A stretch of 64,000 nt of DNA, from positions 256,001-320,000 of the forward strand of contig CBDFJG010000002.1 in NCBI GenBank assembly GCA_965248445.1, read 5' to 3'. Source of the stretch: Planctomycetota bacterium (lineage in GTDB: Bacteria > Planctomycetota > JAJSAM01 > JAJVHW01). Position numbers: made by a program. Shown here piece after piece: positions 15,801 to 18,800 of this stretch. The first letter of the stretch is position 1. Every line of letters starts with the position of its first letter.

Positions 15801-18800
15801 TGCGCCACGGTCCGCGTCTCGAGGAACGCCAGCCCTTGCTCGGCCGGTTCATGGATGCGGGGACCGAGATCTTCGTCGCGTCCGCTACGCTCTCCCGCGC
15901 TCAGGCCCAAGCCGATGCCGGGGACCGCTCTGGGCTTCCCCTGGCCGACTTCGTGTGCCGCGAGGCGCTGCGCAAGATCGACGTCTCCCTGCGCGGAGTG
16001 CGCCGCAACAACGACCGGCGCGCGTACTCACTCGCCCGCGAGATCCTCGCCGGCGACCACGACTGGCTCGAGGGCGGAACGGCGCACGGCGACGGCTGAC
16101 GCTTCTCGACGACGCGGTGCTCTCGCGACCGGCGCCGGCTGTTCCCGGCGTTCGTCGAGGTGGCGCGCCGTGGAACCCCGCCCCTACATCTCGCCGAGAT
16201 CGACGTCCTCGGGCAGATCGAAGTCCCAGGGCGTCATCGCGTCCTCGACGAGCGGTTTGCGAGGAGCGCTCTTCGGTGCGTCTTCGAGAGATTGCAGGAT
16301 CTGTTGCGGTGAGCGTCGCTGCGCAGCGGCCCGTCCGCCGATCGGTACGCGTCCGAAGAAGTCGGCCACCGTGCTCGCACGCGCGCCGAGCTGGCGCGAC
16401 TTCCCAGTGACCTCGCGGTCGTCGCTGACGACGAGCAGAGCGCGCGGATCGTCTGCGTCGCGCACGGCGGTCAGGATCTCGTGGTCGGCTTCCGCGTCGT
16501 AGCAATAGACGACGCGGACGCTGCCCATCTGCGTGTTGGCTTGGGGCTCCCCGGTGCCACGGTGCGCATCGAAGTAGACCGTCGCGGTGCGGGCGATCGC
16601 GCCTACGCGGCGCACGATCTCTTCGCGGCGGGGCTTCTGTGGTCCGTCGGCGATGCCGAGGCGGTGCATCGCGTTGTGGCCGTCCACCAGCACGCGCTCT
16701 CGCATCGCCGTGCTACCGCGTGAAGAAGAACGGTAGTGACGTCCGCCCGTCGGCGCGCCGGATCTGGATCTCGACCTGCTCGCCGAGCGGCAGCGCGTTG
16801 TCCCAGTCCGCGGGACTCGTGAGCCTGCGGGCAGTTCGCCGCAGCATCGAGTCCTCGAGCGGCCTGCCGTTCACCTCGATGCGGCCGCCCTTCGCGAGGC
16901 GTGCGCACGTGACTTCGAGCCGGCCCTCGACGAGTCGAACTCCGCGGACAAACGGCGGCTTCGACGCCTTGATCGGCCGCAGTCCCCGGGCGTGCGGGAG
17001 GTCCCGTCCGATCAACTCGAACAGGTCGAGAGCGTTGTCGGGGAACTGGAACGTGAGCGCGACGAATGCGAGCGCCATCTCGTCCACGGTGCGCTCGCCC
17101 CACGACACGGGCTGCGGCGGACTGTTCGGGTTGAGCGGGTTCTCCGCAGAGTTGTCGTACACGCACCGCATGTGCAGGGTCGCGTCGTACGGCGCCTTCA
17201 CGGGCTTCTTGAACAGGTAGGTGTCCTGCCAGTCGAAGCTCCAGTTGTCGATCTCGACCAGTCGCTGCGAAGTGCCGTCCGGCAGGTTGACGTCGACGAG
17301 GATCTCGCGCCCCAGGTTGTGCATGTGGGGCATCACCGAGAGGATGCGGCCGGACACCGGGAGATCGACGCCGGTCAGTCTCTGCAACAGCGCGCGCGGG
17401 TCCAGCTCGGCAGTCACGACGTACGCGGGATCGCCCGCGGGGATCGTGAAGTTCATGTTGACCACGGGCAGCAGGAACACCTCGCCCGGGCTCTTGCCCT
17501 TCGCGAAGTACAGGCCGAACTTCGAACGGTCGGAAACGGGTTCGCCGGGCAGCGGGTGATAGTGGACCTGCATCACGACGGTGGCGCCCGCCGGAATGCG
17601 GATGCCGTGCTGCTTCGGGAACGTGATCGGGCGGTTTCCCGGAGCCCAGCCGCCGAGTACGGGCGATGCGGGGACGGCGCCCGGGAGCGGTGCGTCACCG
17701 TCCAGCAGATCGGTGAGGTTGCTCGTTCCGGGACCACCGAAGCAGACGTACCCGGGTCCCGGCTCGTCGGCGTCGAGGTCATGCGACTCATTGGTCTCAT
17801 CGAGATAGAGCACGACGTGATGCACCACCCGCCGGTCACCGGGCTGCATGTCTACGGTGCGGACGTAGACGTCCTCGCCGAAGTCTGTCCGGATCGGGAA
17901 GCAGCGGTAGATGTCGTCGCCCTCGCCGGGCACCTCGAATGTCTCGCCGTAGTCAAGCACCACGTCGGGCTCGCCGAGTGCCCAGCCGGTGTTGTCCCGC
18001 TGCGGCCGTGTGCGGCGCGGCGGCCTTCCTTCGACCGCGCCCTGCTCGCTCCACCGGACCAGCGTGGAGATCTCCTTGTCGCTCAGGCCGCGCTCGTCGT
18101 GGAAGCGGCCGACGCCGCGCGTCGGCTGCCAGGGGGGCATGGCGTTCTTCCCGATCTCCTCGAGCGCCACGTCAATCCAGTCCTTCGCCGACGTGTAGTC
18201 GTCCAGCGCCATCGGGGCGATGTCGCCATCGGTGTGGCACGTCGTGCAGTTCTTACGCAGTATCTTTGCGACGTGGCGGTGGTAGGTCGGAGCGCGAGGC
18301 GTTCCCTTGACGTCGCGCGGGAGATCCTCGAAGGGGTTCTCGTGTTCGTCGTGGGCGAGCGCGAGAGCGCCCGCTGCGACGGCGACGACGAGACAGAGGG
18401 TGATGCGCCGGATCATGCGGTCCCCTTCTCAGACTCCACATCGTGCAGGTACTTGGCGAGCCAAGCGTGCACTTCACGGTACCAGACGACCGAGTTCTGA
18501 GGCTTGAGCACCCAGTGGTTCTCGTCCGGGAAGTAGACGAGGCGGGCAGGCACGCGGCGCAGCCGCAGGATCGAGTAGCACATGAGCCCCTGGGTCACCG
18601 GGACGCGGTAATCCAACTCGCCGTGCAGCACCAGCATGGGTGTCTTGGCGTTCCCGACGTGTCGCGCCGGATTCCAGCGGTCCATGCCCTCGTGTGCACC
18701 CCACGGGTTGCCGCCGATCGAAACGTCACGCGCTTGGATCACGTCGCTCGCGAACATCGACTGCGTATCGAAGACGCCCGCGTGATTGACGAGGCAGCGG

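Follow-up and report, generated by a model that had tools for sequence, protein, structure and literature searches.

How a bacterial relative of peptidylglycine alpha-hydroxylating monooxygenase (PHM) and dopamine beta-hydroxylase (DBH) obtains its electrons, and on what class of substrate it acts, are the questions raised by a gene at positions 16713–18416 of the window, the whole 64,000-nucleotide stretch of Planctomycetota DNA that was analysed. PHM and DBH are the textbook "non-coupled" two-copper enzymes. The 567-aa product of the gene consists of a signal peptide, a haem c domain, a dicopper core of the PHM/DBH fold, and an Ig-like domain, as defined by the open reading frame, Pfam, AF2, Foldseek, and VIA. 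We consider it fairly probable that the protein is a periplasmic, Sec-exported, O2-using two-copper monooxygenase fed by its tethered and docked haem c domain, and not by ascorbate. All features given by window position below lie on the minus strand.

Gene Structure and Domain Organization

The 567-aa reading frame begins with an ATG within the sequence ATGA at 18413–18416, the 4 bp that it shares with the S9 peptidase gene upstream, stop codon included, an overlap already claimed in the initial annotation, and the purine run GAGAAGGGGA lies just upstream of this ATGA. Downstream, an NYN/YacP-like gene (16184–16705, assigned by Pfam) starts 7 nt past the TAG stop of the monooxygenase gene; the two are probably carried on a common transcript, and no functional tie between them is evident. 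Scanning of positions 15900–20800, including the junction between the monooxygenase and NYN genes, found neither promoters nor terminators, and no NCBIfam model matches the 567-aa protein. Residues 1–21 (18354–18416) comprise a signal peptide, read directly from the sequences as MIRR, a hydrophobic run, and an ALA/HD cleavage site. Signal peptides are also read at the N-termini of the orthologous monooxygenases, and because the twin arginine is not conserved among them, the signal is interpreted as Sec-type. The host genome encodes the outer-membrane protein LpxR, and a periplasm is therefore present.

The mono-haem cytochrome c domain (residues ~41–129; 18030–18296) is recognized by Pfam Cytochrome_CBB3 (PF13442; residues 49–98, 28.8 bits against a cut-off of 27), by the invariance of its ligands, and by a VIA match of its three-helix fold to the monohaem cytochrome PccH (4rlr; Z 7.1, rmsd 2.4, 77 residues aligned), a weak Z that denotes fold class only. 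The CxxCH haem motif (residues 57–61, C57-T-T-C60-H61) is encoded at 18234–18248, and the axial Met93, part of an invariant MPPW motif, at 18138–18140. Cys57, Cys60, His61, and Met93 are invariant in an alignment of 44 sequences with 40–67% identity to the query; among 91 loci compared by tblastn, the first three are conserved in all 88 that are covered, the other three being cut off, and M93-P-P-W is conserved in 91 of 91. Two Cytochrom_C_asm genes above cut-off provide the host with cytochrome c maturation genes. With its CxxCH motif, distal Met, export, and host maturation genes, the domain has the features of a class I c-type cytochrome, as judged from sequence, and its haem is predicted to be covalently attached.

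The dicopper core that follows is divided into an N-terminal (CuH) subdomain (residues ~148–305, with an approximate boundary; 17502–17975), delineated by profile alignment, tblastn, and VIA and containing His199, His200, and His285, and a C-terminal (CuM) subdomain (residues ~306–458; 17043–17501), delineated by Pfam, profile alignment, and tblastn and containing His364, His366, and Met447. Cu2_monoox_C (PF03712) matches residues 350–452 with 27.2 bits against a cut-off of 23, and Cu2_monooxygen (PF01082) matches residues 160–287 with 27.5 bits, under its cut-off of 30. In the 44-sequence alignment, His199, His285, His364, His366, and Met447 are invariant, His200 is found in at least 90% of the sequences, and about 60 further positions besides the copper and haem ligands are invariant; by tblastn, each of the six copper ligands is present in 91 of 91 loci.

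Because a single-sequence phmmer search of the PDB sequences returned chance matches only (E of 0.097 and above), a profile was needed, and the family profile matches rat PHM with an E value of 2.4e-14 (HMMER). In this profile alignment, in which the rat PHM chain offset of 44 was derived by counting, His199/His200 correspond to His107/His108, His285 to His172, His364/His366 to His242/His244, and Met447 to Met314, and Cys172 and Cys225 align with the PHM disulfide pair Cys81 and Cys126; the CuM ligands of PHM are named as in PMC9064607. The His-His...His and His-x-His...Met patterns of CuH and CuM thus align residue by residue, at an overall identity to PHM of only 16–18%. The AF2 model (mean pLDDT 89.2, pTM 0.87) matches DBH (4zel) at 1.0e-14 and about 30 PHM entries at 6.1e-14 to 2.3e-10 (TM (target) 0.57–0.71) in a Foldseek search against the PDB, and the first fold other than PHM/DBH appears only at 3.5e-5. 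The two-subdomain beta-sandwich of PHM, which is EC 1.14.17.3 and forms the catalytic core of PAM (PDB 1sdw, 1opm), is retained, with 268 residues aligned to 1sdw by VIA (Z 20.8, rmsd 3.1), and 4zel is matched with a Z of 13.5. On sequence and model together, the core is of the PHM/DBH fold with the ligands of both copper sites, which are expected to be loaded with copper. The fold, the six copper-site residues, and the position of a mono-haem cytochrome c between signal peptide and core, all claimed in the initial annotation, are therefore confirmed, as is its assignment of the ligands to CuH and CuM, which now rests on the profile alignment.

Residues 484–567 (16716–16967) form an Ig-like, IPT/TIG-type beta-sandwich, identified by VIA and an architecture census. 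Pfam gives no match in residues 453–567, and VIA aligns the domain with the Ig-like domains of 5c92, 1qhp, 2wq8, and 3n50 at Z values of 7–9, which indicate a fold class, not a family. Among the 91 loci of the census, the Ig-like tail is restricted to the clade of the query, and it is an accessory module of that clade; PHM has no such extra domain, and the C-terminus of DBH is a dimerization domain instead. With DBH, tyramine beta-monooxygenase, and MOXD, the bacterial protein shares the catalytic core and the presence of an additional domain ahead of it. In 4zel this N-terminal domain is presumably a DOMON domain, whereas the bacterial protein has no Pfam match to DOMON at E≤0.01 and carries in its place the class I cytochrome c with its predicted covalent haem.

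The Haem c Domain as a Candidate Electron Donor

All homologous matches start at the haem domain, save those cut by a contig end, and 56 of the 91 loci in the census consist of haem c and core and nothing else; across the sequences compared, the fusion is obligate for the family. Complex models of residues 36–132 with haem against residues 140–475 scored 0.84, 0.85, and 0.85 in three runs, values that express the model's own confidence, and the best of three controls scored 0.00. In a benchmark of this score, 116 of 157 solved complexes attain the mark, as do 2 of 215 mismatched pairs; these counts are only a rough guide here, because the models took a ligand and an alignment of our own as input. 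At least 95% of the contacts are common to the runs, with a partner pLDDT of at least 91. On the cytochrome side, the predicted interface comprises haem-motif residues 59–60 and 64–66 together with residues 95–107, and on the core side it comprises residues 195, 259–264, and 385–404. The last of these segments includes the invariant Trp392, Trp396, and Tyr400 of the family motif W392-x-F394-x-W396-Q397-x-x-Y400, which sits in the CuM subdomain within the predicted docking surface. As a profile search of the PDB sequences found no solved structure that combines the cytochrome c and PHM/DBH folds, the docking score is unlikely to derive from a memorized complex.

The initial annotation had proposed that the haem domain delivers the electrons that ascorbate supplies in animals. 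The obligate fusion, the maturation genes, and the docking model all support a donor role for the built-in haem c and strengthen that proposal, although the role itself is one that we continue to infer. Because the haem c domain is fused to the core and predicted to be docked on it, which sets the protein apart from PHM, ascorbate is probably not the donor, and the database name "ascorbate-dependent monooxygenase" is probably wrong in this respect. In the mechanism that we propose, a periplasmic donor of the respiratory chain, such as a soluble cytochrome c or a bc-type complex, would reduce the His/Met-ligated haem c, which would hand single electrons to the His3 CuH site; CuH would relay them to the His2Met CuM site, where O2 would be bound and a C–H bond hydroxylated in a bound substrate other than a glycine-extended peptide. 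The lowest-error contacts of the complex model join the haem domain to the sheet of the CuM subdomain, and the docking may alternatively reflect electron entry directly at CuM or a purely structural role.

Fused cytochrome c donors are also carried by the three-domain copper nitrite reductase of the Ralstonia pickettii type and by subunit II of caa3 oxidase. There, too, a mono-haem c is joined to a copper redox enzyme and serves periplasmic electron entry, but those enzymes have a cupredoxin fold and reduce nitrite or O2, whereas the present core has a monooxygenase fold. How electrons pass from CuH to CuM over the solvent cleft of ~11 Å is still debated, according to PMC9064607. A bacterial homologue, which can probably be expressed in bacteria, would place a spectroscopically visible haem beside the coppers, and would have a trigger and a reporter built in for following electrons as they enter the copper pair and pass between its two sites.

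Substrate Class and Alternative Functions

The upstream gene (18413–20446) encodes a DPP5-like S9 serine peptidase of 677 aa (Pfam Peptidase_S9, 6.7e-57) in which the motifs GGSYGG, ELDYRVP, and DENHW can be read, and which reaches 320.7 bits with the NCBIfam model Dpp5, far short of the equivalog cut-off of 900. Its 4-bp overlap with the monooxygenase gene had been taken as a hint at peptide substrates, and a PHM-type enzyme that hydroxylates peptidyl-glycine or another peptide position in concert with a co-transcribed S9 peptidase would suit this overlap, as well as the fact that PHM is the nearest solved structure. The gene order is also retained in 3 of 3 relatives at ~60% identity; the same three relatives, however, retain the unrelated NYN and acyl-CoA dehydrogenase neighbours as well, so the adjacency is plain synteny. 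Beyond them, the S9 gene is not beside the monooxygenase gene in four members of this clade at greater distance (G004 and three order-level relatives), and among 79 distant loci it is adjacent in 1, matched weakly in another (20% identity), and without any S9 match in 77. The one adjacent case is a Blastocatellia locus (L072), where an S9-like gene with 41% identity over 252 aa lies directly upstream on the same strand. The N-termini of the S9 peptidase and three orthologues, read from sequence, are without a signal peptide, and those of the monooxygenases have one, which places the two proteins in different compartments. The residues that clamp the peptide in PHM are likewise replaced. Asn316 and Tyr318 of PHM, which we take to be further positions of the carboxylate clamp, align in the rat PHM profile alignment with Leu449 and Phe451, and by tblastn Asn is found at the former in 0 of 91 loci, while the latter is Phe in 73 and Tyr in 8 of 91. 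The Arg240 of PHM, described in PMC9064607 as forming a salt bridge with the C-terminal carboxylate of the peptide, aligns with Met362, and Arg is present in 0 of 91 loci. Unlike PHM with its PAL partner, the 567-aa protein has no PAL domain that Pfam or VIA finds. The neighbouring P0123, a divergent NHL-propeller protein, was considered as a PAL and rejected, as a search of the PDB sequences matches it to NHLRC2 and SOQ1 and to no PAL. The clamp residues, the compartment of the S9 peptidase, and its adjacency all speak against the peptide-substrate hint, which is not supported, and we regard a peptide-modifying enzyme as distinctly unlikely.

A redoxin-like (AhpC-TSA-like) domain precedes the haem domain in 27 of the 79 loci, with a single Cys-Pro at the thioredoxin active-site position and a C-terminal Gly-Cys; we take the Cys-Pro to resemble the T-x-C-P motif of Sco-type copper chaperones. 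Together with the haem and dicopper layout, such a partner would fit thiol or peroxide chemistry, in which the protein would act without hydroxylating an organic substrate, as a periplasmic cytochrome c:O2 (or H2O2) oxidoreductase, an electron sink, or a peroxide-driven enzyme, the haem being the electron entry for oxidase or peroxidase turnover. The ORFs clustered from the 79 loci include no conserved neighbour that indicates a substrate, in line with such a role, and PHM itself has a peroxide shunt (PMC9064607). The same source describes O2 reduction in PHM as tightly coupled to substrate, however, and the His2Met CuM and His3 CuH sites, both strictly retained, are the signature of enzymes that hydroxylate a substrate. 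Genomes also hold many diverged paralogues, with up to 6 matched pieces in one of them (G039), and these look more like substrate diversification, and an oxidoreductase without hydroxylation is thus considered unlikely. A protein that binds copper and haem without catalysis, and serves in copper handling, in sensing, or as a structural element, would agree with the lack of a demonstrated function for the bacterial members and with the Sco-like features of the redoxin-like partner, but the retention of six copper ligands, the haem ligands, and some 60 more positions at 40–67% identity to the query, in a very large family, is a pattern typical of an enzyme, which makes this reading highly improbable. 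A haem c-fed two-copper monooxygenase that hydroxylates a substrate other than a glycine-extended peptide is the interpretation we prefer.

Extent of the Family and Its Redoxin-Like Relatives

The family amounts to 6068 clusters (50% identity) at E≤1e-30, with 1933 proteins at E≤1e-3 among 7999 candidates scored, in agreement with the earlier claim that it is widespread. Its members are common in metagenome-assembled genomes of Acidobacteriota, Planctomycetota, Verrucomicrobiota, Armatimonadota, Poribacteria, and Rokubacteria. Within the full-text collection searched, which excludes the subscription literature on PAM evolution, no article was found that describes a PHM/DBH-like protein from bacteria or its fusion to cytochrome c. 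A metagenome scan with the single protein as query found no relative, and the ESM Atlas yields auto-named sister clusters only, at 0.85–0.89, which serve as leads only. Somewhat more tentatively than the assignment of the single protein, and at a little under even chances, we propose that these proteins constitute a very large bacterial class of ascorbate-independent cytochrome c and two-copper monooxygenases, in which a PHM/DBH core would be wired to the respiratory chain through a haem c rigidly docked at the W-x-F-x-W-Q-x-x-Y surface and would hydroxylate non-peptide periplasmic substrates, and which may be the prokaryotic stock of the eukaryotic PHM and DBH served by ascorbate and cytochrome b561. 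As the family is very large and common across phyla, its substrate may point to an oxidation step in the periplasm of soil and aquatic bacteria that has gone unrecognized.

Apart from the redoxin-like domain, the recurrent neighbours in the clustered ORFs of the 79 loci are all lineage-specific: in Thermoanaerobaculia they are a hybrid histidine kinase, an amidohydrolase, and MacB/FtsX, and in Poribacteria they are a methyltransferase, TauE, and GFO/IDH. These clusters come from a crude ORF caller, which selects the longest ORFs greedily and introduced antisense artefacts such as cluster 2. The host genome's own paralogue (L103:5901-7943, minus strand) also carries an N-terminal redoxin-like domain, and with the 27 of 79 loci this suggests that the supply of electrons or copper may be more elaborate than a single haem. 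These redoxin–haem c–PHM-like proteins share the haem c and dicopper module with all ligands retained, but differ from the query in their N-terminal redoxin/AhpC-TSA-like domain (CP...GC) and in having no Ig-like tail. They are ~30% identical to the query and fall in another part of a quick, midpoint-rooted tree, from which 3 loci were omitted whose best HSP does not span query residues 60–445.

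The copper core and its domain setting

The monooxygenase gene (16713–18416, minus strand) encodes 567 residues, and its third-position G+C of 0.88 is similar to that of the other genes of the window (~68% G+C). Residues 1–21 look like a signal peptide of the classical kind (MIRR, then a hydrophobic stretch and ALA|HD); orthologues also start with signal peptides, but the twin Arg is not kept, so the peptide is read from its sequence as Sec-type, the export that a c-type cytochrome requires. A three-helix mono-haem cytochrome c domain (residues ~41–129) is followed by the PHM/DBH copper core (residues ~148–458) and by an Ig-like, IPT/TIG-type sandwich (residues 484–567), which has no Pfam match and reaches Z 7–9 to such domains of 5c92, 1qhp, 2wq8, and 3n50. 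The AF2 model of the protein has a mean pLDDT of 89.2 and a pTM of 0.87. The cytochrome domain scores 28.8 bits with Pfam Cytochrome_CBB3 (cut-off 27) and contains C57-x-x-C60-H61 and Met93, the latter inside an M-P-P-W motif that is invariant in the family alignment and in the 91 tblastn loci used for residue conservation. Its VIA comparison with the monohaem cytochrome PccH gives Z 7.1 (rmsd 2.4 over 77 residues), a value that speaks for fold class only.

The single sequence has no match among PDB sequences; with a profile of 44 family members, the E-values are 2.4e-14 for rat PHM and 9.9e-9 for human DBH. In the profile alignment, His199 and His200 correspond to rat PHM His107 and His108, His285 to His172, His364 and His366 to His242 and His244, and Met447 to Met314, and the cysteines Cys172 and Cys225 correspond to Cys81 and Cys126; the names of the CuM ligands of PHM are those given in an excerpt of PMC9064607. 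Foldseek returns 4zel (1e-14) together with PHM entries, the latter between 6e-14 and 2e-10 (target TM 0.57–0.71), the next fold following at 3.5e-5, and VIA gives Z 20.8 for 1sdw (rmsd 3.1, 268 residues aligned) and 13.5 for 4zel. The six copper ligands are each conserved in 91/91 loci (79 in species genomes, 11 in relatives, and the paralogue of the window's genome), as is CxxCH in all 88 loci that cover it, the remaining three being cut off there. The initial annotation had described a PHM/DBH fold with a fused haem c domain, and the profile match, the structure searches, and the conserved ligands and CxxCH bear this out in all points, with the qualification that PF01082 scores 27.5 on the protein, below its Pfam cut-off of 30.

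The tethered haem c as probable electron donor

The fusion of haem c to the core is obligate in the family: matches all start at the haem c domain, and 56 of the 91 loci encode haem c and core and nothing else. The host genome contains maturation genes that enable it to make c-type cytochromes, and it carries LpxR, indicating that the host is diderm. When residues 36–132 with haem were modelled against residues 140–475, the complexes received marks of 0.84, 0.85, and 0.85, the best of three controls receiving 0.00; these marks express the model's own confidence and are not a measurement. The mark is reached by 116/157 solved complexes and 2/215 mismatched pairs, counts that are only rough here. 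The runs have at least 95% of contacts in common, with a partner pLDDT of at least 91.

On the cytochrome side, the modelled contacts involve residues 59–60 and 64–66 beside CxxCH and residues 95–107 just past the Met ligand; on the core side, they involve R195 and residues 259–264 of the CuH subdomain and residues 385–404 of the CuM subdomain, which include the family-specific invariants W392, F394, W396, Q397, and Y400. As this W-x-F-x-W-Q-x-x-Y motif lies within the modelled contact stretch, it is best explained as a predicted docking surface for the haem domain rather than as part of a substrate pocket. The haem-to-copper distances and the site of electron entry, CuH or CuM, are matters of inference. 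Because the fusion is obligate, the host is diderm and matures c-type cytochromes, the modelled complex docks, and its contacts are informative, we lean towards a two-copper monooxygenase of the periplasm whose electrons arrive by way of its tethered haem c and not from ascorbate. The haem domain would then supply electrons to the two-copper core in the periplasm, and such a built-in donor could render an old electron-transfer question tractable.

Substrate clamp and the S9 neighbour

Assignment as PHM proper, a peptidylglycine enzyme, was considered and rejected. According to an excerpt of PMC9064607, PHM R240 forms a salt bridge to the C-terminal carboxylate of the substrate. The profile alignment that pairs the copper ligands places Met362 at this position, Leu449 at N316, and Phe451 at Y318. 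We take PHM N316 and Y318 also to have roles in the carboxylate clamp. None of the 91 loci has Arg at the R240 position, which is filled by T, M, A, S, L, F, V, H, Y, or G instead, and none has Asn at the N316 position, where hydrophobic residues stand; at the Y318 position, 73 loci have F and 8 have Y. The protein would work like a PHM/DBH-type copper monooxygenase but, as this defining feature of PHM proper is not kept, should not be filed as PHM, and its substrate is not peptidyl-glycine.

Peptide substrates had been suggested by the upstream S9 peptidase gene (18413–20446, minus strand, 677 aa), whose stop overlaps the monooxygenase ATG within ATGA, with a purine-rich run directly before that ATG. 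An NYN/YacP-like gene (16184–16705, minus strand) begins 7 bases after the TAG stop of the monooxygenase, and a scan of 15900–20800 finds no terminator-like site between the three genes, which are therefore probably a single transcript. The S9 gene is genuine (Peptidase_S9 6.7e-57, with Ser, Asp, and His motifs visible), and its product is DPP5-like at 320 bits, well under the equivalog cut-off of 900. Neither this protein nor the orthologues seen in three relatives begin with a hydrophobic signal, and the monooxygenases are exported, which would place the two in different compartments. The S9–monooxygenase–NYN order, with a convergent acyl-CoA dehydrogenase gene, is kept at ~60% identity in the surrounding genomes G001, G005, and G006; G004 keeps NYN and dehydrogenase, with no S9 gene within 3.3 kb upstream, and three order-level relatives have none of S9, NYN, and dehydrogenase beside the monooxygenase. 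Among 79 distant loci, one (L072) has S9 as a direct upstream neighbour, another has a weak match (20% identity), and 77 have none. The adjacency is thus synteny among kin with one sporadic repeat, not a conserved functional pairing, and the compartment, the restriction to close relatives, and the loss further out weaken it as a substrate clue. In L072, from Blastocatellia, an S9-like gene (401–1156, plus strand) precedes the monooxygenase (1439–2686), repeating the window's order; the contig is cut at 2713 bases, so that the 5' end and any export signal of the S9-like gene fall outside it.

Family, redoxin-bearing relatives, and other genes

Of 1.84 billion cluster representatives, the family profile retrieves 25010 at E<=1e-3; the number drops to 16002 at 1e-10 and to 6068 at 1e-30, the loosest count surely including plain cytochromes and eukaryotic enzymes. 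At least 574 stretches in species genomes encode relatives, mostly in MAGs of Acidobacteriota, Armatimonadota, Planctomycetota, Verrucomicrobiota, Poribacteria, and Rokubacteria/Methylomirabilota, and 18 of the 41 genomes around the window's own carry a match. C-terminal extensions over the 91 loci are absent in 56, short in 22 (including the ~100–126-aa Ig-like tail of the query clade), long in 9 (TIG plus the Solibacter C-terminal domain TIGR03437), and cut or unclear in 4. P0129 (1064 aa) and P0132 (1251 aa) have two and three matched stretches, the haem c–PHM module apparently being repeated within the chain. The literature searched contains no description of a bacterial haem c–PHM-like protein, and database names reach at best "ascorbate-dependent monooxygenase"; within a classic enzyme family, these proteins make up a large branch that is still unexplored, with no new fold and no new chemistry.

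A redoxin/AhpC-TSA-like domain stands N-terminal to the haem c–PHM module in 27 of 79 loci, either fused (L025, L041, L059, and others) or encoded by its own gene, overlapping by 4 bp (L015:5279-5890, L023:5288-5866, L034:5072-5863, L049:5187-5888, and L070:5149-5811). Two features of the domain are conserved: a Cys-Pro where thioredoxin has its active site, with the second Cys absent, and a C-terminal Gly-Cys. Its T-x-C-P context resembles that of Sco-type copper chaperones, and the domain may serve to deliver copper or may act on thiols or peroxide. The genome's own paralogue, on another contig (L103:5901-7943, approximately G000:C1:614901-616943, minus strand; 680 aa as the longest ORF), combines a signal peptide, this domain, CxxCH...MPPW, and a PHM-like core in which the six ligands are all present. 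The paralogue is ~30% identical to the window's protein, Pfam detects only its redoxin part and a weak haem-binding match, and its type is also matched in the surrounding genomes G001–G006, G008, G019, G038, and G039.

A quick tree of 89 rows, rooted at its midpoint, gives the query clade a support of 100 and places it within a group of 44 rows (support 98) that lack the redoxin domain and include sequences from Acidobacteriota and Rokubacteria; the redoxin-bearing forms, including the paralogue, fall outside this group. L017, L023, and L034, titled 'uncultured Klebsiella sp.', stand beside Verrucomicrobiota rows, and L001–L003 and L022, titled 'uncultured Heliomicrobium / Heliobacteriaceae', beside Acidobacteriota rows; as titles misfit tree positions, the labels of these co-assembly MAGs look unreliable.

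Divergent from the S9 gene, P0123 (20542–22842, plus strand) encodes a secreted protein of 766 aa, whose C-terminal NHL-repeat propeller gives weak matches to NHLRC2 and SOQ1 (3e-5 to 4e-3) and none to PAL in a PDB sequence search; no family was found for its N-terminal 450 residues. Five long ORFs with high third-position G+C (4396–5883, 11504–12943, and 26907–27671 on the minus strand; 338–727 and 32528–33355 on the plus strand) have no Pfam family at E<=1e-4. A catalase-peroxidase-like gene (within 1597–4363, minus strand; 717 aa, Pfam peroxidase) adjoins a divergent Fur-family regulator (3929–4363, plus strand), and at 35590–38408 (plus strand) a 797-aa BlaR1-type M56 peptidase sensor comes after a BlaI/MecI-type repressor (Penicillinase_R), with which its coordinates overlap. 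An insertion-sequence-rich patch holds three IS66-family transposase genes (41658–43091 and 43134–44336, minus strand; 45658–47058, plus strand) and a DDE_Tnp_1_4 transposase gene (48971–50398).
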